Of a DNA stretch of 64,000 bases, positions 21,103 to 46,875 are shown in pieces. A program made the translations under genes and the position numbers. The notes under the pieces are model-generated. The model ran no database searches. It had not been told where the DNA came from and saw nothing but the letters and a program-made list of their open reading frames with translations. The stretch's first letter is position 1. Each line of letters opens with the position of its first letter. Source of the DNA: an uncultured bacterium (GTDB taxonomy: Bacteria > Acidobacteriota > Thermoanaerobaculia > Multivoradales > JAHZIX01); assembly GCA_965368975.1 (NCBI GenBank), contig CBDUPA010000001.1:704001-768000 (forward strand), read 5' to 3'.

Positions 21103-22827
21103 CTAGATCTCGGCCCGAGCGACCCTATGACGTACTTCCCTTACCAGAATCTCGTCTCGGCTGACTCGGAAGGCATCGTAGTCATCATCCAGCATTGCCT
21201 GTTGAGCAGCTTCGCCGATGAAGTGGCTTGACAGTATCTGCCGGCAGCGATCTTTTGGCATTAGGTCTACGACATACTGACTTGGCCGTTTCCTGCTGAT
21301 CGCTCTGTTTGTTCTGGCGGTGATCAAGGTTCTGTTGACGATCGTGTTGAGTTCTTTAGATGCTGAGATAGATTGATCTTCACGGAGATGTGCCTTGGGG
21401 AAGATGTGGTGATCTTCGAGTTCGTGAAACTCGACGGTGTCTCCGTTTGAGAAATCACGTGCGCCCCGGAGCGCAACGAGGTTCATTATTCCCTTGTAAG
21501 GACTGCTAGTGCGGTCTCGATAGAGGAAAGAGAAGGACTGATTCTGGAGAATTCTCTGTTGAATCTCCCTGAACGCAGTTGGTACGAAGGTCGGGTCAGT
21601 GAACCGCCGTAGCAAGTCTATGCTGTCTCTATATGTGACGGTCTCGACGGACCCTGTGTACCGCTCGCCGAAGACACTTCCCCAATACCAAGCTTGTAGG
21701 TCTTCATAGGCGCCAGCGTCTCCATCTTCTCTCTCCAGCCAGTCCAAGGCCACGGCTAGGACTGGCAAGAGGGTGGTGTAGGGCTGCCACTTCTGATCGA
21801 AGACTCCGAAGCCTCCTTCCTGCGTGCTTGTCAGTCTCTGCAGAGCCTTTTCGAGAGAGCGCACAGCCCTCCGCCAGTCATCCTCGAAATTCTCTGGTCG
21901 CAGGTTGATGAGAGTCTTAGTTCTGACTTCCAGTCTGCGCAGGAGACCGATGGTTCTCAGTACAAAAACCCCATACTGATCGGGTTTACCTCCAGAGAAA
22001 TCGGCCAAGCGCGCATGATCTTCCATTGCCTCCTGCCAGAGAGAGTGCATGTCGATGTTGAACCGATAAAGCCGGGCTGTTAGCAGGTCGTAGACACCGA
22101 GTCGTACTCCTGTGCTGTTGAGCTTCTCGAAAATGACACAGACTTCTGCAATCGAGTCTTCGCGATTCTCATCAATCTTCGGAAGTTCAATGAAAGGAAT
22201 GTTCGAACCCAGTAGGTTCTCTTCAACTGCGACTCTCCATAATGGGCGGAGCACCTTTCGATAGTGCTCCCGCTCCTCTGACTGTCGCGTGTCCTCCAGC
22301 CAATCGGTATATGCGTCTTTCCAGGCGTGCCACTGGCTAACTTGCGTAAGCGGGAGAATTCGCTGCTGGAACTGAGTATTCCTGTCGGAAAGTAAACCAA
22401 TCTGATCGGCTCGGACGCTCTCGATTAACCGCTCGTCTTCATCGTTGACCAGCGAGTCGAGGTTCAGGAAGAAGCGATATGGATAGGAAGTATTCTTGAC
22501 CGGTATAGCAGGGCCATGTAAAGCATAGAAGAGGCTCGTCAATCTTTGCTGTCCATCTAGAATCAACCATTCGGGCCTCAGCTGGTCGGGATGGAGTTCG
22601 ACTCCCTGCAGCGCCCGGAAGCAAAACGGTGCATGGTCTGGATGGACACGGAGTAGTAAGAAGCTACCGATGAAATAGCCTCTGAAGAGGCTACGCAGTA
22701 GATCTGCTATGTCCTCCCGGCCCCAAACAAAATTACGCTGGAACTGCGGCAGCGCGATCTGTCCTTTGGATGCGTCTTCGACCAGTGCGATAAGTGCTTT
22801 CTTATCTGTAATGAGTTCCATTTCCAT
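21103..22827 (-). CDS. GmrSD-like restriction endonuclease (DUF262 plus C-terminal HNH/DUF1524-like domain)
   Basis: PQFQRNFVW, LDGQQRLTSL, IFEKLN; C-terminal EDHHIFPK...N...TN; visibly lower GC than its flanks. Confidence 0.8.
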   Translation of the reverse strand: MEMELITDKKALIALVEDASKGQIALPQFQRNFVWGREDIADLLRSLFRGYFIGSFLLLRVHPDHAPFCFRALQGVELHPDQLRPEWLILDGQQRLTSLFYALHGPAIPVKNTSYPYRFFLNLDSLVNDEDERLIESVRADQIGLLSDRNTQFQQRILPLTQVSQWHAWKDAYTDWLEDTRQSEEREHYRKVLRPLWRVAVEENLLGSNIPFIELPKIDENREDSIAEVCVIFEKLNSTGVRLGVYDLLTARLYRFNIDMHSLWQEAMEDHARLADFSGGKPDQYGVFVLRTIGLLRRLEVRTKTLINLRPENFEDDWRRAVRSLEKALQRLTSTQEGGFGVFDQKWQPYTTLLPVLAVALDWLEREDGDAGAYEDLQAWYWGSVFGERYTGSVETVTYRDSIDLLRRFTDPTFVPTAFREIQQRILQNQSFSFLYRDRTSSPYKGIMNLVALRGARDFSNGDTVEFHELEDHHIFPKAHLREDQSISASKELNTIVNRTLITARTNRAISRKRPSQYVVDLMPKDRCRQILSSHFIGEAAQQAMLDDDYDAFRVSRDEILVREVRHRVARAEI

Positions 22828-22935
22828 GTAACATTTCTCCGCGCGAAAAATTCGGCAATCCAAGATTTCGTGGATGGGTTAATCCGGCGAGCTTTCGATT
22901 AGTAGATAGGCCCTTTGGATGCTCTGTCAACCGCT

Positions 22936-24680: not shown

Positions 24681-27137
24681 ATGTTTCCCGACTTCCGTCA
24701 GGCCTTCCGCAAGCTCCGCCGCTCGCCCTTCTTCACTAGCATTGCCGTCCTGACCCTGGCCCTCGGCATTGGCGCCAACGCGGCGGTATTCAGTGTCGTC
24801 TACGGCGTGCTCCTCAAGCCGCTGCCCTTCGACGAGCCCGAGCGCCTGGTTGGCATTTGGTACGAGGCGCCTGGCTTGGGCTTCGAGCAGGTGAACCAGT
24901 CGCCGGCAACGTACTTCACGCACCGGGACGATACCGAGATGCTGGAAGATCTCGGCTTGTGGGACAACAGCCAGGTTTCGGTCACTGGGCTCGAGAAGCC
25001 GATGGAGATCGAGGCGATGTTGGTGACGGACGGCACGCTGCCGATCTTGCGCGTGCGACCGGAGCTCGGGCGCTTGTTCAGTGCCGAAGACGATCTGCCG
25101 GACGCGCCCGAGACGGTGATGCTGAGCCACGGCTTTTGGAAACAGCAGTTCGGTGGTGACGCGTCGGTGGTGGGGCAGACGCTGCGGATCGACGGCCGTC
25201 CGCGCGAGATCATCGGGGTGTTGCCCGCGGGATTCCGGGTCATCGACTTCGACGCGGCGGTGTATCTACCGATGGGTTTCGAGAAAGCACAGGCGCGCAT
25301 GGGCAACTTCAGCTACCAGGGACTTGGGCGGCTGGTGCCAGGAGCGACGCTGGCACAGCTCGAAGCCGAGATGAACCGCTTGATCCCGGTGATGACGGAT
25401 CGCTATCCGGGCGGCATCACGCTGAGCATGCTGCAGGAGGCGCGCTTCGCGGCCTACCCGCGCTCGCTCAAGCAGGATGTGGTCGGCGATGTCGGGTCGG
25501 CGCTGTGGGTCCTGCTCGGCACGGTCGGATTGGTGTTGCTGATCGCCTGCGCCAACGTCGCCAACCTTTTCTTGGTGCGCGCTGATGGCCGACAGCTAGA
25601 AGTAGCGGTACGCACGGCGATGGGTGCCAGCCGAATGTCGGTGGTGCGCTCGTTCCTGGCCGAGAGCGTGCTGTTGGGCCTTCTCGGTGGTATTGCCGGT
25701 CTGGCGCTGGCCTTTGCCGGACTGCGCTTGCTGGTGGCTCTCGGACCGCGCAGCTTGCCGCGACTGCAGGAGATCTCGATCGACCCGACCGTGATCTTGT
25801 TCACGGCTGGTGTCTCGCTGCTGGCGGGTGTCCTCTTTGGCTTGGTCCCGGGGCTGCGTAGCAGTGCTCTGGGCGGGCTCGCAGTGACTCTCAAAGAGGG
25901 AGGATATCGCGGCTCGGAGGGTCGCCAGCGGCGCCGCGCCCGTCACGTGCTGGTGGTCAGCCAGGTGGCGTTGGCTCTGGTGTTGCTGGTCGGCTCCGGC
26001 CTCATGATCCGCAGCTTCCAAGCGCTGCAGCAGGTCGACCCCGGCTTCCGCGACCCGGCCGACGTGCTGACGCTGCGCGTGTCGCTGCCACGTGCCGAGG
26101 TCGAGACGGTGGAGCAGGTGATCCAGACCTTCCAACAGATGTACCAGAACCTGGCAGCGATTCCCGGCGTCAGCGCGCTGGGAATGAGTAGCTCGATCAC
26201 CATGGACGGTTGGGACAACAACGACGCGCTGTACGTGGAGGACGCGCCGACACCCGAGGGACAGTTACCGCCGATCCGGCGCGACAAGCGGGTAGCGGGC
26301 GACTACGTGGCGACCATGGGCAACCGCCTGTTGGCCGGGCGGGCGATCGACTGGAACGACTCGCTCCGGCGCAACAAGGTCGTGATGCTCACTGAGGATC
26401 TGGCCACCACCTACTGGGACTCTCCCGCCGAGGCGATCGGCAAGCGGGTGAGTAATGACTCCAGCGGTGACTGGTACGAGGTCGTCGGCGTGGTGGGTGA
26501 TATCCGCGACAACGGTGTGTCTCAGCCAACGGTGCCCACGGTCTACTGGCCGATGGTGGTGGTGGATCCGCGGGACGGCGAGGTCAACGCGCGACGCGCG
26601 ATGGCCTTCGCGCTGCGCCACCAGCGTCCCGACGAAGCGGGCCTGGTACGCGACGTCCAGGACGTCGTGTGGTCGATCAATCCCAATCTGCCGCTGGCCA
26701 ACCTACAGGGGCTCGACGAGATTCTGGGGCGCTCGATGGCACGCACCTCGTTCGTCCTTGTGATGCTGGCGATCGCCGCGGTGGTGGCATTGCTGCTCGG
26801 CAGCGTCGGCATCTATGGTGTCACTTCGTACTCGGTGACACAGCGTACCCGCGAGATCGGCGTCCGGTTGGCGTTGGGCGCGGGGCGCGGCGACGTCAGC
26901 GGCATGGTTCTGCGCCAAGCCGCGACATTGGCGGCGATCGGTGTCGGCGTGGGGCTGGCAGCTGCGTTCGGGCTGACGCGGCTGATGACGTCTCTGTTGC
27001 ACGGCGTCGAAGCGGTCGATCCGCCGACCTACGTGGCCGTCGCGCTGGCGTTGGTTCTGTTCGCGCTGCTGGCCAGCTGGCTACCGGCGCGGCGAGCGGC
27101 GCGCACGGATCCTATGGTCGCCCTTCGCTGGGAGTAG
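24681..27137 (+). CDS. ABC permease, ADOP type
   Basis: [68 protein letters not shown]. Confidence 0.93.
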
Positions 27138-29421
27138 GATCGCTGGGCCTCTGGGTGGTAGCTAGCAGTTCCTCGACTTCGAGAACGTCCTGGTCTTCGG
27201 GCGGCCGGTGCCGGACCAGGACGTTCCGACTCTCTTGTAAGAGGACGCGCGCGCCGTCGATGTCCCCTTGCTCCAGCAGCAGAGCGCCGAGATCCTTGCG
27301 CGCCAGCGCCGTGTCCAGGTGATCGTCGCCCAACTCCGCGCGGCGGATCTCTAGTGCATCAATGTAGTGACGCCCCGCGGCCTGGAGTTGACCCCGCAGG
27401 TGGTGCAGGCCTCCGAGGCTGCTGAGGACCGCTGCCGCCTTGCGGCTGCGTTCGCCATAGATGTCGCGACGGATCGCGAGGGCTTGCAGCAGCAGTGGCT
27501 CGGCGACGTCCAGCTTGCCCTGGTGGATGAGTACGGTGCCCAGGCTGCGCAGGCTGGTGGCGACGTTGGCGTCATGCTCGCCGAACTGTGCCAGACGCTG
27601 CGTCAGAACCTCGCGGTAGATCGTCTCGGCCTCGTCGAAAGCGCCGCGTTTGAGCAGGATAGCCGCCAGGTTGCTCCGTGGCTTGGCCAGATCCCGGGTC
27701 AGGCCCAGCCGCTGGCGCATGGAAATGGCCTCGCGGAAACGGAGCTCGGCCAGGTCGAGTCGGCCGGTCCAGTAGTCGAGGTAGGCCAGATTGTTGAGCG
27801 CCGAGGCCAGATCCGGCTGGTCGCGGTCGCTCAGGGCTCGGTACTGGGCCACGGAGCTTTCGAACAGCTCTCGGGCCTCGTCGTACGCGCCGAGTCGGGC
27901 GTAGACCTCGCCCAGGCGCAACTGCAGCTTGGCGCGGGCTTCCGGGTCTTCGAGCAACTGGCGTTCTAGCCGCAAGCGCCCCTTGTCGACCAGCTCGCGC
28001 ACCGTCGGTTCGCGCCCGTTCGGCTCCTCCGTGCCGGGGCGATCCGGGGAGGCGGCCTGGAACAAGCTGACCAGGAAGTCGGTGACGCCTTCGGCCCGCT
28101 GCCGCGCTCGTTCGGTGTTGTCCAGCTGACGATCGAGCGCCACGGTGAAGGCGCTGGCCAGCACCAGCGCCAACAGCAGGCCGGCAGCGGGAAGACGGTG
28201 GCGGCGCAGAAAGCGGCTGGCGACGTAGAGGGGGCCGCCGGCGCGCGCCTCGACCGGCCGTAGCCGCAGGTGGCGGCGAAGGTCCGCGGCCAGCTGCTCG
28301 ATCGTGGCGTAGCGTTGCGACGGGTTTTCCGCGAGCGCTTTCAGGACGATGGCGTCGACATCGCCTGCCAGGGCCCGGCGCAGACCACGCACGGAACCGC
28401 GGCGCGAATCCGCCACCACCTCCGGCCGCAGCTGGCGGGTGCTGGCGTCGGAGTAGGTGAAAGTGAGGTGCCGGCTGGTGGCTCGGCTGGGCGGCACGAT
28501 GGGTTGGATTCCTGGCTGCGCTGGAGGAGTGTCGACCGGTGTCGTCTCGCCATCGGCGAGGGCGGCATGGTGGGGCAGCCGGCCGGTGAGCAAAAGGTAG
28601 AGGATGACGCCCAAGGAGTAGATATCACTGGTTGTCCCGATGGGCTCGTGCCGCCGCTGCTCCGGACTGGCGTAGTGCAACGTCATGGCGCTTTGGTGCG
28701 GATCGCCAGTGGCATCCGTGGTGTCCGTGCGCAGCAACTTTGCGATGCCAAAGTCGAGCAGCTTGGGCGTTCCGTGCGCATCCACCAGGATGTTACTGGG
28801 CTTGAGGTCGCGATGCACGATCAGGTTCTGGTGCGCCAGTTGCAGCGCTGAGCACACGGGCAACAGCAGTTCCAGGCGCTGACGGACACTGAGCCGGTGC
28901 TGGTCGCAGTAGTGGTCCAGCCGCTCGCCTTCGACGTACTCCATGGCGAAGTAGGGCACACCGTCGGCGGTCGTTCCGCCGTCCAGCAGGCGCGCGATGT
29001 TGGGATGCTCGAGGCGGGCCAGGATCTGACGCTCGACGTGGAAGCGGCGCAGCAACGACTCGCTGGCGCCACCACGCTGGACGAGCTTGAGCGCTACTTG
29101 CTGTTCGAACTCTTCCTGGCGCTCGGCCAGGAAGACGATGCCCATGCCGCCGCGTCCCAGGTTCTTGACCAGCTGATACGGACCGACTCGCTGGCCGAGC
29201 TCGAAGTCTTCCAGTTCCGGAGTCGGACGCAAGCCCGCCAGGACCGGTTGCTCGATGAAGTCGTCGAGCTGATCCTCGTAGGCCAGGAAGGACTCGACCT
29301 CGCGCAGGAGATCCGGATCCCCACCACACAGGTCGGCCAGCCAGCTGCGGCGATCTGGGTACGCTGGATCCATGGTCTGCTCGAGGATCCTCTGAATGTG
29401 TTGCCAGCGCTCGGGGCTCAC
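27112..29421 (-). CDS. Membrane Ser/Thr kinase with C-terminal TPR domain
   Basis: AGGAG then GTG at 29421; [30 protein letters not shown]; one TM; ASALNNLA-type TPRs. Confidence 0.92.
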
Positions 29422-29503
29422 GGCTGCTCTCCTGATTCTCGTGGTTCTTCCAGAGAAGCGCAGAAGCGCCACCAACCAGACCACGTCGCCGCCCGCCCGA
29501 AGT

Positions 29504-30097
29504 TCACGGACCGTCCAGGGCGCGCAGCAACCACAGGCGGGCCGAGCGCCAGGCGCGCTTGACGGTCATCGCTGAGATGTCGAGTGTCGCCGCGGTTTCC
29601 TCGATGGTCAGGCCGCCGAAGTAGCGCAGCTCGACGATGCGAGCTTGCCGTGGATCGACCTTGGCCAGCCCTCGCAGTGCCGTGTCCAGGGCTACCAGGT
29701 CGATGTCGATTTGTCCCAAGGCCGACGTCCAGGCGCCGGACGTCGGCGAGTCGAGCTGTTCGTCGAAGGGTAGCGTCGGGACGCCGCCACCTTTCTTCAG
29801 TGCCTTGCGCCTACGTGCGTGATCCACCAACACCCTGCGCATGATCTCGGCCATGCCGGCGAAGAACTGGGCACGGCTTTCCCAGTGCACGGACTGGCGA
29901 CTGGCTACGCGTAGATAGACCTCGTTGACCAGCGCTGTCGGCTGCAGGGTGTGTCCCGGATTCTCTTTGGACAGATGGATACGCGCCAGCCGGCGCAGGT
30001 CATCGAAAACCAATGGGATCAGTCGCTCGAGGGCTTCCGGGTCGCCATCGCTCCAAGCGTCGAGAAGCGCCGTGACGTCCCACTGAGGTTCAGGCAT
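29504..30097 (-). CDS. ECF sigma factor, TIGR02999/kinase-associated type
   Basis: VTALLDAWSDGD, HTLQPTALVNEVYL, PRQARIVELRYFGGLTIEETA, VKRAWRSARLWL. Confidence 0.92.
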   Translation of the reverse strand: MPEPQWDVTALLDAWSDGDPEALERLIPLVFDDLRRLARIHLSKENPGHTLQPTALVNEVYLRVASRQSVHWESRAQFFAGMAEIMRRVLVDHARRRKALKKGGGVPTLPFDEQLDSPTSGAWTSALGQIDIDLVALDTALRGLAKVDPRQARIVELRYFGGLTIEETAATLDISAMTVKRAWRSARLWLLRALDGP

Positions 30098-30238
30098 GCA
30101 GGGATTCTAGCCGATGCCCAACCCTTCGGTGAGTGCCTAACCGTCGGGTTAGTGGATTCGGTGATCTGTGCGGGACCCAGGACAGTCGCGGAAGGGTAAG
30201 TATTTCTTGGGCCGGGTTTTATGGGTTCTCCGAAGAGT

Positions 30239-30254
30239 TGGCACACGGTCTGCA
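30239..30254 (+). promoter_or_regulatory. Sigma54 (-24/-12) promoter candidate
   Basis: TGGCACACGGTCTGCA: GG-N10-GC spacing with a TGGCAC -24 element and AT-rich DNA upstream; 130 nt before ATG 30384. Confidence 0.65.
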
Positions 30255-30383
30255 ATACCTCTCCAGTCAGACCACGAAGACCATCCACCGGTGGACCGGT
30301 CACCTTCATGTTCCCAGCAACGGCGAGTCCAGGACTCCCGTTCGCAGTGACAGCGAGCCCAAGGGCTCGCAAGGAGACCTGTC

Positions 30384-31442
30384 ATGTTTACATTCGCTCA
30401 GCAGTTCACTCTCTCATTACAACTTCCGAAGGGTGCTCGGTGGATCCGGTTGGTGTTGGCCGGCGCGCTACTCCTCGCGCCGGCGGTCAATGCTCAGCCT
30501 ACGTGCGACGCCTGGCCCGTGACGGTGGGTGAGACTGTGCGTCACGCCGGTGGCGGCGTCGGGGACAGCGCTTGCTTCCTTCTCGACGTGCCGCTGGAGA
30601 GCCTCTTGGCCGTCGATGCCTTGACGCCGGTCGACGGCGCCCGTGTGCGTCTGCACCTGCAGTCGGCTGCCGGGCACCGTCAGCTGCGGGCCAGCGGTGA
30701 CAGCCAGCTACAACTCGCGGCCGCGGGTCAGTACCGGCTGCGCGTCGAGGCCGAAGATCCCCGGAAGCCACTGCCCAGCTTCCGCTTGCTCGTCCGCGCT
30801 TTACCCTCGGTGTCTCCCGCTTCGCAGTTCATTCCGGCACCTTCCGGCGCTCACGGTGAGCTAGATACGGAACTCGAGATCGACCCGAATCTCTTGCTCT
30901 CGGGGTTGGACCTACCCAGCACGGGAACGGACGACGGGGAGCTGGACACCGAGCTGGAAATCGACCCCAACCTCGGGGAGTTGGACACCGAGCTGGAGAT
31001 CGACCCCAACCTGCTGCGCGTGGAGCTGACATCGACGCTGACATCCCTGCTGACGCGCCTGTGTGGCCAAGCCGAACTCGACGATCACGGTGACGACGTG
31101 CTGTGTGCCACGCCGCTGACGGACGGCGTCGAGGCGCACGGCGAGATCGCCAATGCGTACAGCGATGATCGCGATGTCTACCGCTTCCGAGTCGAGGAGC
31201 TGGCGACCGTAGCGTTGCAGGTGGCGGGGCAGGCGGAGTTCTGTGCTGACTTGGTCGACGCGGCCGGTCAGCACCTGGACGCGCGGTGGAGTCGGGACGC
31301 GGAGCGGCTGCGCGGCGTCGTCACGCTGGTTGCCGGTAGCTATGAGCTGCGTGTCGAGGGGTGCGGCGGGACGGGGGGGAACTATCGTGTTTCGCTAGAA
31401 GACCAAGAGACTCTTGGCGGCTCTGCCGTACCGGCTTTCTGA
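30384..31442 (+). CDS. Secreted protein with PPC-like beta domains flanking three GELDTELEIDPNL repeats
   Basis: AAGGAG then ATG; signal peptide ending AVNA; DDHGD..CATPL...GEI....DRDVYRF PPC-like domain. Confidence 0.78.
   Translation: MFTFAQQFTLSLQLPKGARWIRLVLAGALLLAPAVNAQPTCDAWPVTVGETVRHAGGGVGDSACFLLDVPLESLLAVDALTPVDGARVRLHLQSAAGHRQLRASGDSQLQLAAAGQYRLRVEAEDPRKPLPSFRLLVRALPSVSPASQFIPAPSGAHGELDTELEIDPNLLLSGLDLPSTGTDDGELDTELEIDPNLGELDTELEIDPNLLRVELTSTLTSLLTRLCGQAELDDHGDDVLCATPLTDGVEAHGEIANAYSDDRDVYRFRVEELATVALQVAGQAEFCADLVDAAGQHLDARWSRDAERLRGVVTLVAGSYELRVEGCGGTGGNYRVSLEDQETLGGSAVPAF
30855..31013 (+). repeat. Three 39-nt coding repeats (30855-30893, 30936-30974, 30975-31013) encoding an identical 13-mer
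   Basis: Direct reading: 9 synonymous and 0 non-synonymous differences between copies 1 and 2; 3 synonymous differences between copies 2 and 3. Confidence 0.95.
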
Positions 31443-31480
31443 ACCTCTCGAACGACCCTTTCCATACTCCGATCGAGTGT

Positions 31481-31506
31481 GAGCCCGTGCAGGGAAGTAC
31501 GGGCTC
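31481..31506. terminator. Hairpin between convergent genes
   Basis: GAGCCCGTGC-AGGGAA-GTACGGGCTC stem-loop. Confidence 0.5.
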
Positions 31507-31536
31507 GCTTGCGTTCGGGACGATTGTGCGAGGCAA

Positions 31537-33819
31537 TCAGAAGACGAGGATGGAGCGCAGTTTCGGATTTGCTGCCCGCAAGAAGGTGTAACCCACGCCC
31601 GCCGAGCCGAGCATCAAGCCGGGTACGGCGAAGCGCGGGGAGACCCCGGAGGGCCACTGGTTGTCTCCGGCGTACCGCTCGGCCAGGCAACGCAGTGCCC
31701 CCTCGGCCAGATGGCGGTAGCGAAGTTCACCGAGAACCTCCGCAGCCACCAATAGCGTTTCGACCAGGCCGCAGAGTCCATGGCACAGGGTCGTGTCCAG
31801 GTTGGGGCGTCTCAGCCGTGCGCGCAGCGTCTCGGCGGCCGTGGTAACTCCGGCACGGGCCGCAGGCAGATAGTACTCGGCCCCTTCGGGGTTGAGCTGC
31901 AAGGCGCGGAGCCGTGCCAGCGCGATTCCCGGTGCACCGTGGCACCAGGCAACCCTGTACCGAGGTGGAGTGGACTCCCTATTGGCTTCCGGGGAGGGTA
32001 CTCCTGGGCTGCGCAAGTCGGGCCAGTTGCCGACAGCGGCACTGAACTGTCGATCTTCGTAGGCGAAAGCTCCCCGCGCTCCTTCGAGGAAGCGTATCTC
32101 ACCGGTTTCGCGGTAGAGGTGCAGCAGGGCGAGCCCGACACCGGCATTGCCGTGGGAAAGCCCGAGCTGTGCTGGTCCGTCCTCGTCGTGAACGGCTGCA
32201 TAGCGGCCAGGCCAGATCCAGCACCCGTCTGCGGTCTCCGCACTCTCGCACAGCTGATCGCCCAGGGCGAGCGCAGCGCGCCGCAGGCGCTTGAAACCAG
32301 TGGCGTTATAGAGCTCCAGGAGCATTGGAATCGTGCCGCTGTCTCCGCTGATGAAGTCCACTGGTCGGTCTGCTTCTGGTGCGATGGCCTCTTCGAGGCT
32401 AAAAGCATCCAAGTGCTGATCGACCTGTGCAGTGAGGTTGTCGTCCCCGAGTCGGTTTGCACAGTGCCGAGTTGCCCAGAGATGTCCGGCGAGCCCGCCA
32501 AACGGACTCAGATCCTGAGCGCCTGGCTCGGCTCGTTCTGCCTGCCAGAGCGTCTGTTGGAGCAGGCCTAGCAAAGTATCTCGAAGCCGTTCCTCGCGGG
32601 TCGCCAGGAAGAGTTCCGCAAGGAAGAGCGCAACGCCGGAAGTGCCATCGTGCATTTCGGCCGGAAGTGTGCAGACCGCGGCATATCCTCCCCAACCATC
32701 GAGCTTCGAGGGAGAGCAACGGCTGAGCCAATTGCAGCGTCCTTGATACCAGTTGGCTTCTTGGCAAAGGTCGAGACCAATGCCGAGGGCACACTGAGAG
32801 AGGCTTGCTGGAGAGGGCTTTCTGTGGGGTTCGTGTCTACGAGATGCGCGGCGGATTCCTGGTAAGGGGTAGCAAGCCTGAGATCGTGGCGCCCGGTACG
32901 GCTTTGCCGGGTCCAGGCCGGCAGTGCGGAAAGCGGTATCAACGGTTTCTTCCTTGGGCTGGCCAGTTGTGAAGGCCTCTACGAGAGCTGAGGCGATCAA
33001 CTCGCATCGGTGTTCGCCGAAGCTCTCACCGCCGAGTGGCCCTTCGGCGACAGCCAGTCCGGGGGCCAGGGGCAAGGTGAAGCAGGGAGTTGCTTCATGA
33101 AGGCCATGTTCCACAGCCCGATAAAGTTCAGCGATAGCAAGAGCCACCGTGGCCCAACAGCCGGACTGCAGGTACAGAACGCCGGCATCGGCGCGTCCAT
33201 AAGCCGAGGGATCATCGGGTACCTTCGCCTTGAAGCTAATGCCGAGCGGGTCGAGTGTCTGGCAGAGCTGCTCTAGCCAGGTCGTGGCGCAGTCGGGATT
33301 CAGGTTCCAGTACAGGCGAAGTAGCCAGGGTGATTCTGAACTCGGTGAATCGGTGGTACCCAGAATGGAGTAGAAACCTGGGAGCCTGTTTGGGGCATCG
33401 CCTGGGATTCGAACCGAGATGGCGTCTCCTGGCTTCAGAGTTTCCTCGACATGACGGACATCGCTCAAAGGGCTGTGGAAGCGAATACCACCACGTTCAA
33501 CGATGCACCGCGCATCCGGGAGGATTTCTCTCAGTCTCCATCCGCTCTGCCAGCAGAACCTTCCTTCCTCGACCCGGAGAAGGTGCTGCCGAAAGAGTGC
33601 GGCCGAGTTGATCTCAGCAAGCGGGGCCATGACCGGAAGCTGCCGTGACCGCATGTAGACATGTTGGTAGAGGTGCCGAGTCAGAGATTCGACCAAGGAA
33701 CTGGACGGGGAACGGTGCAAGGTCTCGCCACACAGTCGGTAGCTGTTGCTGTCGATCAGGTCGATGGTTTCGACCGTGGTGCGAAGGTCGGTCGACCACT
33801 GTCGAGGGCCGAGAAACAT
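31537..33819 (-). CDS. HopA1-like lyase (LanY-like) fused to LanC-like lanthionine cyclase
   Basis: N-half: LRLYWNL, Y.RADAGVLY, PLAPGLAVAE.P..GESFGEHRC (HopA1-like). C-half: DG.SGVALFL, D.ISG..G, GLSHG..G, WPDLR, WCHGAPG, LCHG..G, GLMLG.AGVG (LanC with Zn ligands). Confidence 0.85.
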   Translation of the reverse strand: MFLGPRQWSTDLRTTVETIDLIDSNSYRLCGETLHRSPSSSLVESLTRHLYQHVYMRSRQLPVMAPLAEINSAALFRQHLLRVEEGRFCWQSGWRLREILPDARCIVERGGIRFHSPLSDVRHVEETLKPGDAISVRIPGDAPNRLPGFYSILGTTDSPSSESPWLLRLYWNLNPDCATTWLEQLCQTLDPLGISFKAKVPDDPSAYGRADAGVLYLQSGCWATVALAIAELYRAVEHGLHEATPCFTLPLAPGLAVAEGPLGGESFGEHRCELIASALVEAFTTGQPKEETVDTAFRTAGLDPAKPYRAPRSQACYPLPGIRRASRRHEPHRKPSPASLSQCALGIGLDLCQEANWYQGRCNWLSRCSPSKLDGWGGYAAVCTLPAEMHDGTSGVALFLAELFLATREERLRDTLLGLLQQTLWQAERAEPGAQDLSPFGGLAGHLWATRHCANRLGDDNLTAQVDQHLDAFSLEEAIAPEADRPVDFISGDSGTIPMLLELYNATGFKRLRRAALALGDQLCESAETADGCWIWPGRYAAVHDEDGPAQLGLSHGNAGVGLALLHLYRETGEIRFLEGARGAFAYEDRQFSAAVGNWPDLRSPGVPSPEANRESTPPRYRVAWCHGAPGIALARLRALQLNPEGAEYYLPAARAGVTTAAETLRARLRRPNLDTTLCHGLCGLVETLLVAAEVLGELRYRHLAEGALRCLAERYAGDNQWPSGVSPRFAVPGLMLGSAGVGYTFLRAANPKLRSILVF

Positions 33820-33823
33820 GAAG

Positions 33824-34954
33824 TCAGGCAGGGGGCGAGTCCTCCGCTGAGACAGGGGATTCCAGATCGTAGAGGTGGTGCGCCGCGTCGTCGGGATCCT
33901 TTAAGATATTCACTCCTAGCTGCGAGAGGAGAACCATGAGCGTGGTGTAGCCGGAGGCCCTGCGGCCGACCTCCTGTGCTGTTCCGAGTAACTGCACGCC
34001 AGAAAAGGCGACGGACCGCTGCAGGAGGTTTGCCGTTGCCTCCGTGGGTAACAGGGCGGCTTCCAGGTAGGCGTGCCAGAAGCCTTGGATCCATGGACGC
34101 ACCATTCTGAGTGGCATGCGAGCCGCCTGAGAGCGCTCAGCCGACTCGATGTCGGCTTCCATGGGCATGCTGGTGACCCAGAACCGCAAGAACTCGCGAA
34201 GGACGGCTCCGAGATCCCAAGCTGGATCCCCGAAGCGGGCCATCTCCCAATCCACGAGTCGCAGGGGCTGTTCGGTGTCGGCTATCCACAAGACGTTGTC
34301 GGATCGAATATCGCCGTGGATCAGCGTTTCATCCTGCCATCTGGATCGCCAGATCTCGAGAGGCTCCAGTAGCTCCACTTCTCCTTGAATGATGCGCAAC
34401 AAGTCCAACTGAGCTGGTCTCAGCTCGTTGCGGCGGGCCAGGTTTACTTTGGGAAACCAGAAGAGTCCGGGCGCACCCATGGGCAGCTTGGGTACGAAGC
34501 CGCCGAGGTCGAGCCTGCGGCGCCTCAGACCCCGGTGGACTCGGCCCAGGCTGCGGCCCAGGGCCTTGGCGATGGAGAGGCCTTGGGCAGACTCTTCGGT
34601 GCACGCCTGCAACCACGGTCGTGCGTTCCTGATCAGCTCTGCTGCCAGAACAGGATCAGGCGAGTCAGTCTTCTTTATCGCTGGTAACAGGGGCAGGAGG
34701 TCTCGGTGACCTGGAACTGCACCAAGGCATTGGTGCAGCCTTGCCTCGTACGCCAAAGGCGGGCCTTGCTCCGGTCTGCCAGAAGGTTTCTTGATCAGGT
34801 AGCCAGGTTGATTGGGAAACTCGACTCTCAAGCTTTGATTGAGCCGGAGAATCCAGGTGACACCCAGGCCATCGATCAGGTCTTTTTCGCGCAAGAAAGG
34901 ACACAACTCGAGGAGTTCTTTGCCCAGTTCTGACGGAGCTTCGAGGGGCTTCAC
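33824..34954 (-). CDS. Aminoglycoside-phosphotransferase-fold kinase (LanK-like)
   Basis: LIHGDIRSDNVL and LVDWEMARFGDPAWDLG; 4 nt from the HopA1-LanC gene. Confidence 0.85.
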   Translation of the reverse strand: MKPLEAPSELGKELLELCPFLREKDLIDGLGVTWILRLNQSLRVEFPNQPGYLIKKPSGRPEQGPPLAYEARLHQCLGAVPGHRDLLPLLPAIKKTDSPDPVLAAELIRNARPWLQACTEESAQGLSIAKALGRSLGRVHRGLRRRRLDLGGFVPKLPMGAPGLFWFPKVNLARRNELRPAQLDLLRIIQGEVELLEPLEIWRSRWQDETLIHGDIRSDNVLWIADTEQPLRLVDWEMARFGDPAWDLGAVLREFLRFWVTSMPMEADIESAERSQAARMPLRMVRPWIQGFWHAYLEAALLPTEATANLLQRSVAFSGVQLLGTAQEVGRRASGYTTLMVLLSQLGVNILKDPDDAAHHLYDLESPVSAEDSPPA

Positions 34955-34975: not shown

Positions 34976-35179
34976 TCAGGTGGCCGGCGAAGACGGCGAG
35001 CACCACTGAGGGTGACTATTTTGAAGCGTGCGTAAGGGGGGAAACCACACACAGTCTGGTGACGGCGAAGATCTGTCGTCTTCGGACTCGACTTCGGCTT
35101 GGGCCAAATAGGTGTCCGTAAGGTGACCCTTCAAGAAGTGGCTCGCGCGAGGGGACTGGCGGTGCTGTTTTTTGCGCAT
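34976..35179 (-). CDS. Putative RiPP (lanthipeptide) precursor peptide, 67 aa
   Basis: AGGAGA-acgt-ATG; fills the gap between the receptor kinase (9 nt) and the LanK-like gene (21 nt); C-terminal 31 aa contain 7 Ser, 2 Thr and 2 Cys. Confidence 0.65.
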   Translation of the reverse strand: MRKKQHRQSPRASHFLKGHLTDTYLAQAEVESEDDRSSPSPDCVWFPPLRTLQNSHPQWCSPSSPAT

Positions 35180-35188
35180 ACGTTCTCC

Positions 35189-38100
35189 TCATAGGTTTCT
35201 GCATCCAACTGCTGGTGATCCCGCCGAGCGTACATATGTGGCGAGCTCATGATCGTCTACCAGAGTTTGGAACTGTTCGTCGGACCATTCGGCGTCGAGA
35301 AGCCGATGCACAATGGGTAACGCTTCTTCAATTCGCCCCAGCTCCAGCAGGGACTGAGCTCGAGTATCGAGAATCCGGCACTTCTCGGCTGGCAGTGCTT
35401 CCGCTAACTCGAGTGCTTTCTGCCAGCTGTTGCGAGCCAGATCCTCTTCGTCGCGTTGCTTCTGAATGCGACCAAGTTCGAGGTAGGTTCGAGCTGTCGC
35501 TTCCGTGTTTTGTGGATTCTCAGGCATATCCTGGAGAAGACGCAGGACCGTTCTTCCTTCTAGGAGAGCCAAATCCCATTTGCTCGCACTCTTATAGTGA
35601 TCCTGGAGAGCCGCATGCGACACAACTAGCCATAGTTGCAGGTGGGTGTAGGTCGGATGTTCATCTGCCACTTGTTTGAAGGTTTCACTGGCGCGGTGCA
35701 GGTAGGCCAGAGCTATCTCGGGCTGGTCCTCAAGTGCCGTGGCAAGGCCAACCCAGGTCTGTGCCAACGCTACAGGCCAAGTGTCCCGCAATGGGTCGAG
35801 TACGATCAGTTGTTGATAGAGGCGCTCGGCCTCTCGTAGTCTGTGGAGCGCGCTCGGCTTGTCAGCTGTAGCCAGATAGAGGTTTCCGAGATCGAGTTCG
35901 GTTATGGCCTGTGCTCTGAGCCAGGTGAGCTGTGTTGGATTGCCTTCCATCAGATTTCCGAGCCTTGTTCGTAACCTTTCAAGAGCACGTATTCCTTGTT
36001 GGAAATCGGACCGAGCCTGGTGGAGTGTTCCGAATAGTTGCAAGGTATCAACAAGCAGAGTTTCGGTTCGCCAGTTCGAAGTTGGCTCGAGTACAAGGTC
36101 TTCTGCAATCTGGAGCGCCTCCTCAGCATACTCCAAGCCCTGCTCGAAGTCTCCGATTCGGCAGTACAAGTGAGCGGTCTCCTGAAGATTCTGGCCTAGC
36201 AACAGGCGCCACTCGGTCGGCGCATCCTCCCTTCCTGCCAGTTGCCGCGCCAGCAGGCGAGAAGAGGCGAGACTGTCGAGTCCTTCCTGGGTTTTTTCCT
36301 GTCGAATCAGAACGGACGCAAGTCTAAGTCTTGCCCGGCTCAGGGCTCCTTGGACTCGGGCTTGGCTCGGATCTTTCTCATGTAGGGCCGCTAGGATGCG
36401 GACGGCTTTCTCATGTGCAGCTTGAGCCTGGTTGACATCCAGCCGCTCTTCTAAGACCCATCCGATGTTGAGATACGTGAGGGCGCGGCGAAGACTGTCC
36501 GCGGAGCTGAAGTCCGCCTGGGTTTGCGAGAAATGCTCCAAAGCTCTTTGAGCCACTTGATCCAGCAGGTCCAGGCGCCCCAGAGGTTCCAGATTTTCCT
36601 GCAGGTCGAAGAGCATGAAGTCGATCAACCCTTCCGCCTGCCGCCGCTGCTCTCCTTCGCGCTCCTTTGCCTGCATGGCCTGGAGCGCGAGGACAACGAC
36701 CACCACCAGGAAGATCGACGCCGTGACGGCAACTGCCTTGAGTCGTCGTCGGCGCCGGACCGCTTGCTGCGCAGCCCGCCTCGCTGCCCTTTCCGTTGCC
36801 CGTTCCGCCCGCCGTTGTTCCAGAGTGTACAGCTTCTCGGCAGCAATCAAGCCACTCGCCGGCCGCCGCTCCGGCCGGCCATCGACGAGCGTGCCAATGT
36901 CCTCGACCAGCAACTCCTCCTCGACATCCCGCTCCCAGCCGGAGGCCAAGGGCCGCTCGAAATCAGCCGCGACCAGTTGATAGAGCAGCACACCGAACGA
37001 GTAGAGATCCGCCTGGATCGTGGCCGGTCGGCCGGCAAGTAGCTCCGGTGCCATGTAGCCGAAGGTTCCCGCTCCGGAGTCCGTGGTCGGGGTTGCCGTC
37101 GCCGTGAAGCCGAGGGCAGTGAAATCTTGCCCTGCCAGCTGTTCTCGATCCGTCAGCAGTCCGATGCCAAAGTCGGTCAGGCGCGCGCGCGGGCGGCCAT
37201 CGCGGTCGCTGGTGATCAAGACGTTCTCGGGCTTGATGTCCTTGTGCAGCACGCCGACCGAGTGCGCCGCCGCCAGCGCCTCGGCGACTTCGGCGGCCAG
37301 TTCCAGGCGCACCTCGAGCGGTACTTGACTCAGGCCTCCTTGCTGCTCGGCCCAGCGCACCAGGCTGCCGCCCTCGGTGTACTCGGCCTCGACGAAGAAG
37401 GGAGCGCTGTCGAAATTCCAGTCCAGGATGCGCGCGATGTCGTCGCGCTGGCCCAGGGCTTCCTTGAGCAGGCGGAAGAGCGTCACCTCGCGCTTGAGCG
37501 CGCGCAGGCGCTCGGCCTCGAAGCAGAACTTGAAGACGCGCGCCTCGCCGGCTTTGTGGCGGGCCAGCCAGACCTCGCCGAAGCCACCTTCGCCGACGCG
37601 CTCTTCCAGCTTCCAGTGCGGTCGACCGGGAATGGGTTGACCACCGGCGGGGCGCCAGCCGAGCATGCGTTCTTCGCTGACGGACAGGGCCCGCCGGGCA
37701 TCGGTGCGTTCGGAGGGAGGTCGTAGGGCCGACAGCCCGTCGAGACCGACCTCGAACACGTCCAGAGGGGTTTCTCGGCCCCTGAGCAGGTAGCTGCCGT
37801 GCGCCAGCCAGCGAAGACTGCTCTTGCCGCCGTCTTCCGTGCCGTCGCGGGAGTCCGGATGGGCACGGCGCGCGAGGTCGAAGGCGGTACGGCTGAGCAG
37901 GATCTGGTTGCCAGCGGCGAGGTGTAAGAGCTGGCAGGCGGTTCCCTTCTCGCTACCTTCGACTTCCACCTCCGGTGCACCTTGCTGCCTCTCGGCAGAG
38001 GAGGGACGGTGCACCAGAACTTCCGCCGTGTGGATGGCGGCGCGGATCGGCAACTCGACCGCGAAGGTGGAGGCCACTTCGAGGATGGCCCGCTGGGTGG

Positions 38101-39361
38101 ACAAGGCGCAGGCGACAGCATCGGCGGGGCGTTCGAAGACGGCGAGCAGGCTGTCGGCTTTCTCGGCCACCGAGCCGCCGTACAGGGACACCAGGTCGCG
38201 CAGGCGCCGGTCGTACCGGCTCAGGAGGCTGGCCGCGGTGCCGTCGCCGTGGCGCTGGGGCAGGGCGGCGCGGTGGAGCAGTTCGACGTGGAGCAAGGTG
38301 CGAACGGCTGGAGTGCCGGTAGGAGGGGAGGGGAACCATTCGCCGGTCGCCTGCTCGCTCGTGGCGGGGTTGCCGTCGAGTTCGCCGTGGCTGGCGGAAG
38401 CCCGCCGCGTACCTGACGGCCGTGGCAGGGCAGAGGTGTCGGGCTGGAGGAGCACGCCAGGGCCAGTGCCGGCATCCGTGCCAGGGCCAGGGCCGCTTCG
38501 CAGTCGTTCCAGCGAAGCGGCCACCAGGCTGGCGTTGGCGGGGCGCTGGTGCGGGTCCTTGGCCAGCAGGGCCTCGACTAGCTGCAGCAGGTCGGCTGGC
38601 AGCCGCGGCTGCAATTGAGCTAGGGAAGTCGGAGGTTCTGCAGTGATGCGGCACAGGGTGTCGAGCAAGTTCGTCCCCTGGAAGGGGGGGCGACCGCTGA
38701 GCATCTGGTAGAGCAGGCTGCCGAGGGCGAAGAGGTCCGATCGGTGGTCGAGCGGACGGCCGCTGGCCTGCTCGGGAGACATTGCATGGACGGTGCCGAC
38801 CAGGGCTCCCGCTTCGGTCAGGGTCTGGGAGCCGATAGGGTCCTGGAGGAGCGGGTCTTGGGACGACGTGTCCCTGCGCCAGAGGCAGTGCACCAGGCCG
38901 AAGTCGAGGATCTTGGCATGTCCGGCGGCGGTCAGGCGGACGTTCTCGGGCTTCAGGTCTCGGTGGACGAAGCCGCGAGCGTGCGCCTCGGCCAGACCTT
39001 GGGCGATCTCCGTACCGAGACGTAACGTCTGGTCGAGGTCGAGGGGGCCGTCTGTCAGCAGATCGGCCAGGCTCGGCCCCTCGACGTACTCCATGACCAG
39101 GCAATCGCCGTCGTCGGTGGAAACGATGTCGAAGATCTGGACGATCGCCGGATGGTTGAGGCCCGCCACGGCCCGGGCTTCGCGCCGGAAGCGCTCACGT
39201 CGCCGCGGATCGACTTCCAGGTCTTCGCGGATGCGCTTGATGGCGACTTTCCGGTGCAGGCGCTCATCGCGCGCCAGGAAGACCTCTCCCATCCCTCCGA
39301 CGCCGAGCCTGGACTCGACGCGGTAGGAACCAAAGCTGAGTTCGACTGATGCTGTGGGCAT
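35189..39361 (-). CDS. Receptor kinase: Ser/Thr kinase, degenerate class III cyclase-like domain, second kinase, TM, TPR-like domain
   Basis: Kinase 1: GVGGMGEV/HRDLKPEN/DFG. Cyclase-like: GD..A.LL..YDR..RDL...GG...D..L.VFERP.DAV..AL...IR.AIH..EV. Kinase 2: GEGGFGEV/HKDIKPEN/DFG/GYMAPE. TM: VAVTASIFLVVVVVLAL. Confidence 0.88.
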   Translation of the reverse strand: MPTASVELSFGSYRVESRLGVGGMGEVFLARDERLHRKVAIKRIREDLEVDPRRRERFRREARAVAGLNHPAIVQIFDIVSTDDGDCLVMEYVEGPSLADLLTDGPLDLDQTLRLGTEIAQGLAEAHARGFVHRDLKPENVRLTAAGHAKILDFGLVHCLWRRDTSSQDPLLQDPIGSQTLTEAGALVGTVHAMSPEQASGRPLDHRSDLFALGSLLYQMLSGRPPFQGTNLLDTLCRITAEPPTSLAQLQPRLPADLLQLVEALLAKDPHQRPANASLVAASLERLRSGPGPGTDAGTGPGVLLQPDTSALPRPSGTRRASASHGELDGNPATSEQATGEWFPSPPTGTPAVRTLLHVELLHRAALPQRHGDGTAASLLSRYDRRLRDLVSLYGGSVAEKADSLLAVFERPADAVACALSTQRAILEVASTFAVELPIRAAIHTAEVLVHRPSSAERQQGAPEVEVEGSEKGTACQLLHLAAGNQILLSRTAFDLARRAHPDSRDGTEDGGKSSLRWLAHGSYLLRGRETPLDVFEVGLDGLSALRPPSERTDARRALSVSEERMLGWRPAGGQPIPGRPHWKLEERVGEGGFGEVWLARHKAGEARVFKFCFEAERLRALKREVTLFRLLKEALGQRDDIARILDWNFDSAPFFVEAEYTEGGSLVRWAEQQGGLSQVPLEVRLELAAEVAEALAAAHSVGVLHKDIKPENVLITSDRDGRPRARLTDFGIGLLTDREQLAGQDFTALGFTATATPTTDSGAGTFGYMAPELLAGRPATIQADLYSFGVLLYQLVAADFERPLASGWERDVEEELLVEDIGTLVDGRPERRPASGLIAAEKLYTLEQRRAERATERAARRAAQQAVRRRRRLKAVAVTASIFLVVVVVLALQAMQAKEREGEQRRQAEGLIDFMLFDLQENLEPLGRLDLLDQVAQRALEHFSQTQADFSSADSLRRALTYLNIGWVLEERLDVNQAQAAHEKAVRILAALHEKDPSQARVQGALSRARLRLASVLIRQEKTQEGLDSLASSRLLARQLAGREDAPTEWRLLLGQNLQETAHLYCRIGDFEQGLEYAEEALQIAEDLVLEPTSNWRTETLLVDTLQLFGTLHQARSDFQQGIRALERLRTRLGNLMEGNPTQLTWLRAQAITELDLGNLYLATADKPSALHRLREAERLYQQLIVLDPLRDTWPVALAQTWVGLATALEDQPEIALAYLHRASETFKQVADEHPTYTHLQLWLVVSHAALQDHYKSASKWDLALLEGRTVLRLLQDMPENPQNTEATARTYLELGRIQKQRDEEDLARNSWQKALELAEALPAEKCRILDTRAQSLLELGRIEEALPIVHRLLDAEWSDEQFQTLVDDHELATYVRSAGSPAVGCRNL

Positions 39362-44388: not shown

Positions 44389-44398
44389 CTGCATCTCC

Positions 44399-46687: not shown

Positions 46688-46856
46688 GGATGCTTCCTCC
46701 ATGGATCGCCGCGCCGGTTGCCGCCGGCACGGTGGTTGTTTCCTAGGGGCGATGGTCCGCCAGCTTTCGCGAGTCGACGGGCCATCGCCTGTTTCCGTTT
46801 GAGTCGGCCCTAGCTTGTCTCTCCGGAACTCCCAGCAGAGAGGTGACGAGAGGTTG

Positions 46857-46875
46857 TTGAGACAATGTCTCATTA
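46857..46875. promoter_or_regulatory. Fur-box-like palindrome
   Basis: TTGAGACAATGTCTCATTA (TGAGAC-AAT-GTCTCA), upstream of the TonB receptor. Confidence 0.7.

Follow-up and report, generated by a model that had tools for sequence, protein, structure and literature searches.

A 64,000-nucleotide window of an uncultured acidobacterial genome (contig CBDUPA010000001.1, positions 704,001–768,000 of the forward strand) carries at 30384–31442 (+) an open reading frame (ORF) for an exported acidic-repeat protein of 352 amino acids (P0001; here the repeat gene and repeat protein), a member of a family with 594 HMMER matches. The family is found almost always beside an extracytoplasmic function (ECF) sigma factor and a receptor kinase with tetratricopeptide repeats (TPRs), which makes the repeat protein a good candidate for the unknown partner of that kinase. 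The reading we favour, tentatively, is that of a periplasmic protein which presents multivalent acidic linear motifs to the TPR sensor of the kinase and would bind it through them. Coordinates below are those of the window, and the genome from which it was taken is referred to as the source genome.

Conservation of the repeat peptide

The three copies of the repeat unit, GELDTELEIDPNL, lie at 30855–30893, 30936–30974 and 30975–31013 (all +; aa 158–170, 185–197 and 198–210, respectively). As reported in the initial annotation of this DNA, and confirmed here from the ORF sequence, the 13-residue copies are identical, copies 1 and 2 differing at 9 nucleotides that are all synonymous. These 9 are all in third positions. 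Likewise, the 10 nucleotide differences between copies 1 and 3 and the 3 between copies 2 and 3 are without exception synonymous. Since 24% of single-base changes in the repeat stretch are silent, the probability of nine random changes sparing the peptide is ~2.6e-6, and none of 200,000 simulations gave this outcome. Selection acts on the repeat peptide rather than on the DNA, a point made from the window sequence earlier and also borne out by silent changes between copies in five orthologues (loci L011, L012, L019, L032 and L048). The copies of L019 differ by 6 silent and no amino acid changes, those of L011 by 5–6 silent changes and 1 amino acid change, those of L048 by 6 and 2, and those of L032 by 2–4 and 0–1; in all five orthologues the amino acid changes fall outside the core. 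Copies within one protein are generally near-identical, with DNA differences that are often silent, and the copies of L009 and L010, with 0–1 differences, are young DNA duplicates. Neither the 13-mer nor its 7-residue core occurred again in a six-frame translation of the 7.1-Mb source genome.

An exhaustive HMMER search defined a family of 594 proteins (E <= 1e-3), of which 218 remain at E <= 1e-10, with an overall identity to P0001 of 26–40%; a word-index homologue search matched only P0001 itself. The best 150 of the 594 matches comprise 123 proteins of less than 520 aa, which mostly have the two-domain layout described below, and 27 large proteins with multiple PPC domains. The strict pattern [DE]x[DE][LIVMF][DE]P[DNE] occurs in 50 of the 123 small members (at least twice in 36) and in none of the 27 large ones, while a looser pattern restricted to the linker recovers 83 of the 123. 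With this looser pattern, no copy was counted in 40 small members, one in 24, two in 24, three in 20, four in 13 and five in 2. Many of the 40 zero-copy members, read by eye, are misses of the anchor rule or carry variant acidic-Pro units such as EIEIEVDP, ELEDEPDP, EIEVDGF and DEYQPEPDP, and a few family members have no linker at all. Across the family, linkers of 60–150 residues carry 1–6 acidic units with the core E-[LI]-E-[ILV]-[DE]-P. The consensus of 103 distinct units is K-[GS]-E-x-D-x-E-[LI]-E-[ILV]-[ED]-P-[DEN]-P, in which acidic residues occupy alternate positions, hydrophobic residues stand between the last three of them and a proline closes the unit; 45 units have an Asp-Pro bond and 58 have Glu-Pro. 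Judged from these comparisons, the motif is deeply conserved despite the low overall identity of the proteins that carry it. The result is a large protein family without a Pfam or NCBIfam model, now defined and with a simple, recognisable signature.

The 46 loci taken from species-representative genomes all derive from metagenome-assembled genomes (MAGs), with labels of Acidobacteriota, Thermoanaerobaculia, Holophagales, ‘Candidatus Multivoradales’ or ‘uncultured bacterium’. P0001 was matched in 20 of 60 relatives (21 of 61 counting the source genome). Among sequencing runs, two DNA data sets from sediment metagenomes contained small shares (0.18 and 0.07), and none of RNA was listed. In an even sample of the phylum, with 5 candidates scored per genome, 17 of 401 genomes gave a match at E <= 1e-10; the match was full-length in the source genome alone and covered the C-terminal domain only in the others. 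A sister subfamily (L018, L027, L036, L037, L039, L040, L044 and others) lacks linker repeats, has an N-terminal domain with the sequence VDEWDGD(I/V)(L/I)K and is less tightly tied to a kinase; in six sister loci (L027, L036, L039, L044, L050 and L054) a sigma factor–kinase pair lies ~2.3–2.5 kb upstream, with room for one gene between.

Linkage to ECF43-like sigma factors and TPR kinases

Related loci were retrieved with the 17 closest family rows, and the stop-to-stop ORFs of 61 distinct loci (57 after removal of four duplicates), together with those of the window, were searched by phmmer with the window's sigma factors, kinase domains, TPR ectodomain, lanthionine synthetase-like (Lan) proteins and ADOP permease as queries. 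Linkage was defined as a Hanks kinase within 1.5 kb or a sigma factor within 0.6 kb. Of the 24 repeat-bearing loci, which come from 17 genomes, 21 showed it, and in all 21 the adjacent kinase has a TPR ectodomain, so that the linkage of homologues to an ECF sigma factor and a TPR receptor kinase, set as a check by the initial annotation, was upheld. For comparison, the chance that a gene of this size adjoins any kinase in the source genome is ~6.6%.

The linkage is not confined to one arrangement. In 14 loci the repeat gene and the sigma factor or kinase gene diverge; in six (L025, L028, L029, L030, L034 and L058; gaps of 0–64 bp) the repeat gene converges with the kinase gene, and in L031 it lies on the same strand, upstream of sigma factor and kinase. 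The sigma factor–kinase linkage thus survives rearrangement. Furthermore, one MAG contains at least six repeat-bearing paralogues (L021, L023, L024, L029, L030 and L033), each with a distinct version of the motif; five have a TPR kinase of their own no more than 1.5 kb away, and for L023 the distance is 2.9 kb. The same MAG has one linker-less member (L026), the whole resembling a small expansion of the ligand–receptor kind.

In the window, the repeat gene is divergent from an ECF sigma factor gene (29504–30097, −; TIGR02999 / PF07638), ECF43-like with QPTA instead of DAED, and a Hanks Ser/Thr kinase gene (27112–29484, −; start codon uncertain), the arrangement already noted for this locus. 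The kinase consists of an N-terminal extension of ~100 aa, a kinase domain (Pkinase E 5.5e-43), a transmembrane (TM) segment and an ectodomain of TPR_12/TPR_10-type repeats. Its one TM helix spans aa 431–450, with RRHR on the kinase side and the TPRs (aa ~452–790) on the opposite side. With a single helix, the TPRs are placed outside the cytoplasm, and the TPR domain is by its predicted topology extracytoplasmic and faces the side to which the repeat protein is exported.

A second receptor kinase of 1390 aa (35189–39361, −) has two kinase domains, a cyclase-like region, a TM helix near aa 875–895 and C-terminal TPRs. Its residues 350–559 match the ‘peptide modification system cyclase’ and TOMM kinase/cyclase models, and its gene is syntenic with the repeat gene in L011, L020, L024, L032 and L048. 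A second ECF43-like sigma factor (39392–40048, −; TIGR02999 / PF07638 match) again has QPTA. This sequence is present in 19 of 38 sigma factor ORFs of the loci, and a further 8 have xPTA or xATA. With DAED absent, a conserved Thr in its place and a Hanks kinase adjoining, the sigma factors are ECF43-like. The source genome has 19 TIGR02999-type sigma factor ORFs, 16 of them with a kinase within 1 kb, and one of these 16 sigma factor–kinase pairs has a repeat protein as partner. The genome is also rich in eukaryote-like signalling, with 82 Hanks-kinase ORFs.

Sigma factors of the ECF43 group are without the acidic patch and have a conserved Thr that is phosphorylated by the adjacent Hanks kinase (PMC13147305, PMC8999054). 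In the portions of these papers covered here, EcfK–PknS of Xanthomonas citri and EcfP–PknT of Vibrio parahaemolyticus likewise have Thr in place of DAED, as QTTA/STTA rather than the QPTA seen here, and the periplasmic signal of PknS and PknT is stated to be unknown (PMC13147305, PMC8999054). PknS, as described there, carries an extension of 83 aa at its N-terminus, a TM segment and TPRs in the periplasm (PMC13147305), and the kinase of the window shares the N-terminal extension, the one TM helix and the periplasmic TPRs. However, the same portions mention no secreted partner, whereas the systems described here have a third conserved gene, that of the acidic-repeat protein; in the clade of the window the module is further extended by another kinase, another sigma factor and a sigma-54 activator with an FHA domain. 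A search of the ECF43, Hanks-kinase, TPR and PPC literature, in which the motif string was not queried and Iyer et al. (2020) and the supplements of Casas-Pastor et al. (2021) lay outside the scope, found no such partner protein described in the portions of the papers covered. The locus suggests a circuit in which ECF sigma factors and Hanks kinases, two types of signalling, are combined with a third, an FHA-domain sigma-54 activator.

Domain architecture and a possible calcium-binding linker

A Sec signal peptide is predicted for aa 1–37 (30384–30494, +), with cleavage between VNA and QP. Read by eye, it has basic residues (K16, R19 and R22), a hydrophobic run and the VNA–QP site, and is without a lipobox; AlphaFold2 shows a helix at 16–31 in this region with low to moderate confidence. 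The earlier description of the protein as Sec-exported agrees with this reading.

The structure of P0001 was modelled with AlphaFold2 from a family alignment of 116 sequences (mean predicted local distance difference test score, pLDDT, 79.7). Two beta-sandwiches were modelled at residues 43–141 and 240–340, each with pLDDT >90. The first belongs to an N-terminal domain (aa 41–141; 30504–30806, +), which is followed by an acidic linker (aa 142–207; 30807–31004, +) that is disordered over residues 150–207 (pLDDT 44–58) and holds all three repeats, a predicted helix (aa 208–227; 31005–31064, +; pLDDT 72–89) leading from the repeats to the C-terminal domain, and a C-terminal PPC / collagen-binding-like domain (aa 228–341; 31065–31406, +). 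The repeats showed no predicted docking onto the protein's own domains.

The C-terminal domain superimposes on the ColH s3 and ColG s3b domains, with Z 16.0 for 3jqw (rmsd, root-mean-square deviation, 1.8 A over 106 residues) and Z 15.8 for 1nqd (1.8 A over 103 residues). Foldseek matches were obtained at E 3e-7 to 4e-7, the best being the tandem s3a–s3b structure of ColG solved with calcium, and the family profile matches the collagen-binding domains of ColH (E 6e-6) and ColG (E 6e-5). In the ESM Atlas, the neighbours are clusters labelled PF04151 (PPC). In fold and in sequence relatedness, the C-terminal domain belongs to the PPC / collagen-binding superfamily. The Pfam PPC model PF04151 gave no match on P0001 at E <= 0.01, and no Pfam or NCBIfam model reached its threshold; the family is too divergent for the PF04151 model. 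The statement that the repeats lie in a linker between two PPC-like beta domains therefore stands for the disordered linker and for the C-terminal domain, while the N-terminal domain is PPC-like by the tandem alignment to ColG s3a–s3b alone (199 residues, both domains together).

The C-terminal domain opens with a near-invariant DDHGD and also carries GDDxDVxRF, the near-invariant columns being D233, D234, H235, D237, D261, D262 and D264. DDHGD aligns with the start of the Ca2+-bound (holo) ColG s3b (900–1008). The Ca2+ ligands of ColG are, we presume, the residues of its N-terminal acidic strand and DxD motif.

These relationships suggest a serious alternative, named already in the initial annotation and the main rival to a signalling role, in which the linker is a structural Ca2+- or metal-binding element that chelates Ca2+, by itself or jointly with the PPC-like domains, and so stiffens or reorients the two domains of a secreted binding module for some polymer, the repeats not touching the kinase at all. 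We consider this on balance unlikely, though it has much in its favour: the close match of the C-terminal domain to Ca2+-binding ColH/ColG domains (Z 16; profile E 6e-6), the calcium-solved tandem as best Foldseek match, the near-invariance of DDHGD and GDDxDVF, and five acidic residues per unit at alternate positions, as in a strand with one acidic face. In the portion of the source used here, the s3a–s3b linker of ColG switches from helix to strand upon Ca2+ binding (PMC4356367). The two systems are alike in having two PPC-type beta-sandwiches, an acidic linker and a DxDxF motif. However, the C-terminal domain already has an acidic strand of its own (DDHGD), and the repeats stand at least 25 residues upstream of it, beyond a helix. 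There are also up to 5–6 units in proteins with only two domains, and the linkers of the family are disordered, 60–150 residues long and carry 1–6 units, whereas ColG has one short Ca2+-binding segment. Moreover, the hydrophobic residues and the proline are conserved as strictly as the acidic positions, the 27 large multi-PPC relatives do not have the motif, and paralogues in one genome keep distinct motif versions, each next to its own kinase. The repeat protein is without the peptidase or PKD domains of ColG, and its genomic context is one of signalling rather than degradation. A calcium linker would also leave the linkage to a TPR kinase in 21 of 24 loci unexplained. Were it nevertheless correct, the protein would differ only modestly in structure from other tandem PPC domains.

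The motif units as candidate TPR ligands

The repeat protein has the traits that a TPR ligand would require, in that it is exported and carries in a disordered region a multi-copy motif, which is under strong purifying selection and differs between paralogous modules. In the mechanism that we propose, P0001 would be the exported accessory (third) component of an ECF43-type sigma factor and Hanks receptor kinase module. After Sec export it would reside in the periplasm, where the disordered linker would display three acidic amphipathic units, with acidic residues alternating with Leu or Ile and a proline at the end. The TPR sensor in the periplasm that belongs to the kinase encoded at 27112–29484, and perhaps also that of the kinase encoded at 35189–39361, may be where these units dock. 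Multivalency could allow the units to bridge kinase molecules or hold them in place, and in this way to set the activity of the kinase towards the sigma factor. In the clade of the window, phospho-signalling by the kinases through the FHA activator might in turn feed back on the amount of repeat protein, since the activator is encoded in the same module. The effect on the kinase could be activating or inhibiting, and the FHA activator would exert the control.

With such a candidate ligand, what the TPR domain of an ECF43 kinase senses becomes a direct binding question that can be put with a 13-residue peptide. A further-reaching version of the proposal, which we regard as rather doubtful, is that the repeat protein represents the first encoded protein ligand of an ECF43-associated kinase, a secreted multi-motif scaffold with paralogous pairs that are insulated by their different motif versions and, in the clade of the window, a sigma-54 autoregulatory loop, and that cleavage or masking of the linker by an outside agent is possibly the real signal.

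A dependence of the motif on the TPR domain, which the initial annotation had set as a check, was examined by comparing divergence in 18 cognate pairs. Motif divergence correlated with that of the TPR ectodomain (r 0.68), and less with that of the protein's N-terminal domain (r 0.57), the kinase domain (r 0.38) and the protein's C-terminal domain (r 0.21). The partial correlation of motif and TPR given the other three was 0.49, with a permutation p of ~0.001, a figure to be read in the light of the tendency of Mantel tests to overstate significance among relatives. The expected covariation is therefore present overall, but it fades within clades, and adding the divergent lineage L012 lifts the within-clade r to 0.83. 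Taken together, the covariation of motif and TPR domain is suggestive only.

Several observations weigh against the motif as a TPR ligand. Within clades, the correlation of motif and TPR divergence is weak (r 0.20 for 9 loci and 0.41 for 7 loci), because of which the signal rests on few lineage splits, and the motif strings were aligned manually for the divergence test. The TPR ectodomains have net charges of −4 to −22, which disfavours a simple electrostatic capture of an acidic peptide, although they contain many conserved Arg residues despite their net negative charge. Three of the 24 repeat-bearing loci are without close linkage: L015 shows no sigma factor or kinase in a 10-kb contig, in L023 a TPR protein separates the repeat gene from the kinase, which is 2.9 kb off, and L046 is a 3-kb contig too short for linkage to be judged. 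Furthermore, adjacency to a sigma factor can simply mean that a gene is a regulon target, and the Ca2+-dependent collagen-binding fold with its acidic Ca2+-switch linker offers a ready non-signalling explanation. A complex prediction for the TPR ectodomain (452–790) with the linker (150–215), run without controls, gave ipSAE values of 0.13 and 0.05, where the mark is 0.32, and counts neither way.

Domains of the TPR type are known to bind acidic motifs, as in kinesin light chain with W-acidic cargo motifs and in Hop/CHIP with the EEVD tail. By analogy, the proposed interaction would resemble these in pairing a TPR domain with a short acidic-hydrophobic motif in a disordered region, often in several copies. 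Those systems are, however, eukaryotic and cytosolic, and the repeat units use neither W nor a C-terminal carboxylate. The RRNPP receptors are cytoplasmic regulators whose peptides are small, processed and re-imported. The proposal shares with them a TPR domain that would read a short peptide encoded by a neighbouring gene, but the locus does not represent an RRNPP-type pheromone system, as its TPR domain lies outside the membrane, beyond the TM helix of a Hanks kinase, and its motif is carried within a two-domain protein of 352 aa.

A related alternative, the released form of the peptide that the initial annotation had also considered, is that P0001 is a pro-protein, from which proteolysis of the linker in the periplasm or outside the cell frees the acidic units as diffusible signals that are sensed by the TPR kinase in an autocrine or quorum-like loop. 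Multiple identical units in a protease-accessible disordered linker would suit this, as would a possible feedback loop through the sigma-54 promoter described below. The Asp-Pro bond, present in 45 of the 103 units, is acid-labile; self-cleavage at Asp-Pro was nevertheless rejected as a general mechanism because 58 of the 103 units have Glu-Pro, which also speaks against release of the units. The flanks of the units show no conserved cleavage site, the looser pattern counts just one copy in 24 of the 123 small members, and both folded domains are conserved along with the linker. Among the matched neighbours no protease gene was noted, in phmmer queries and Pfam scans that were not aimed at proteases. 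We hold a released peptide to be quite improbable.

Sigma-54 promoter, palindrome and leader

The region upstream of the repeat gene contains a sigma-54-type promoter facing it (TGGCAC-N5-CTGCA; 30239–30254, +), identified by orthologue alignment, with the −24 GG and −12 GC elements at canonical spacing. A palindrome, CTAACCGTCGGGTTAG (30137–30152), 102 bp upstream of this element, is a candidate enhancer (upstream activating sequence, UAS). Between the promoter and the gene, a conserved palindromic or hairpin leader element of the form GACC..CCGG..GGTC followed by CTTCA (30279–30301, +) was found in orthologue alignments, and a GC hairpin is followed by the ribosome-binding site AAGGAG (30354–30376, +), a comparable hairpin and site being present in orthologues. 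The intergenic regions of divergent orthologues share the palindrome CTAACC-N4-6-GGTTAG, the promoter TGGCAC-N5-YTGC and the conserved leader. Variants of the leader in orthologues read GACC..GCCGGC or CCGGTGG..GGTC, then CTTCA.

The promoter was present in 12 of the 27 loci examined, that is, in 12 of 12 loci of the window's clade and in 12 of 14 divergent loci, and a similar palindrome occurred in 10 of the 12 orthologous loci with the promoter. Genome-wide, the promoter pattern has 208 matches (0.015 per kb per strand in the source genome), and the palindrome pattern has 2 sites against ~1.2 expected. The source genome encodes rpoN, above the model cut-off. From the conservation of these elements, transcription of the repeat gene in the window's clade appears to start at a sigma-54 promoter that is paired with a palindromic enhancer specific to the locus. 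The conserved leader palindrome may form a hairpin in the RNA or serve as an operator in the DNA. An Rfam search of 29900–31700 gave no match at E <= 1, and RNAalifold on the leader alignment returned one spurious 5-pair helix involving the promoter.

A candidate regulator of the promoter is encoded at 40155–42062 (−), where domain matches identify a sigma-54 activator of FHA-GAF-AAA+-HTH architecture. An orthologue of this activator is found in 9 of the 12 promoter loci, twice directly beside the repeat gene. As FHA domains bind phospho-threonine and the activator is encoded in the module, a path from the kinase to the FHA activator to the repeat gene is plausible; both this path and the assignment of the activator that would bind the palindrome are inferred.

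The promoter bears on a further alternative, in which the repeat gene is an output: the main regulon target of the module, under sigma-54/FHA control, ECF control or both, whose product acts outside the pathway, for example in binding or protecting the envelope or matrix, with the repeats serving as spacers or ligand-binding elements. A dedicated sigma-54 promoter, a palindrome almost unique in the genome and the synteny of the FHA activator in 9 of 12 loci all fit such a role, and ECF sigma factor genes commonly adjoin their targets. However, the six convergent loci lack such a promoter and still lie 0–64 bp from the kinase gene, which argues for a conserved link to the kinase rather than for one promoter arrangement, and spacers would be unlikely to keep a strict 10-residue unit over hundreds of clusters. 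A pure output role is improbable in our view.

Lanthionine synthetase-like genes

Downstream, the repeat gene is convergent with genes for a HopA1 lyase domain fused to a LanC-like cyclase (31537–33819, −; 760 aa, by model matches) and for an LxmK-like APH-family kinase (33824–34954, −; LxmK E 1e-25, below the cut-off), a convergence already noted for the locus. These products match the models of class V-type split lanthionine synthetases, which comprise an LxmK kinase, a HopA1-like lyase and a cyclase. A 67-aa ORF (34976–35179, −), with GAGGAG 5 nt before its ATG, lies between the genes for the 1390-aa kinase and the LxmK-like kinase, directly upstream of the latter, and is a candidate lanthipeptide precursor, the C-terminal half being rich in Ser, Thr and Pro with two Cys. 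No homologue of this ORF was found in ~1.5-kb flanks of nine related Lan loci, nor elsewhere in the genome.

The initial annotation had proposed the repeat protein as a candidate multi-copy signal or propeptide of a ribosomally synthesized and post-translationally modified peptide (RiPP). In a RiPP precursor, the units would be cores or recognition sequences for the HopA1–LanC and LxmK-like enzymes. The convergent, split lanthionine synthetase-like pair and the one Thr in each unit are in keeping with such a precursor. Nevertheless, HopA1, LanC or LxmK-like genes lay beside the family in none of the 57 other unique loci, and the Lan homologues of relatives are found either on a different contig or at a great distance on the same one, as in G053 (2.54 Mb versus 1.45 Mb). 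The units are also without Cys, the 352-aa protein, with its Sec signal and two folded domains, is not of the short leader–core kind, and the 67-aa ORF is the more natural precursor candidate. The proposal fails because the Lan enzymes stand beside the family only in this window and have their own candidate precursor of 67 aa; we consider it scarcely credible.

The Lan pair is co-directional with, and directly downstream of, the gene for the 1390-aa double Hanks kinase, at a site that is empty in close orthologous loci. Because of this empty position, the Lan set looks like a separate insertion into the second kinase operon.

Other features of the window and genome

Upstream of the FHA activator gene, the window encodes a Kelch/PQQ beta-propeller protein and a TonB-dependent receptor (42151–46873, −). 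Elsewhere it encodes a protein with a GmrSD-type restriction endonuclease N-terminal domain (21103–22863, −) and an ADOP permease, typical of Acidobacteriota. The source genome as a whole contains 25 sigma-54 activator-like and 36 ADOP-like permease ORFs.

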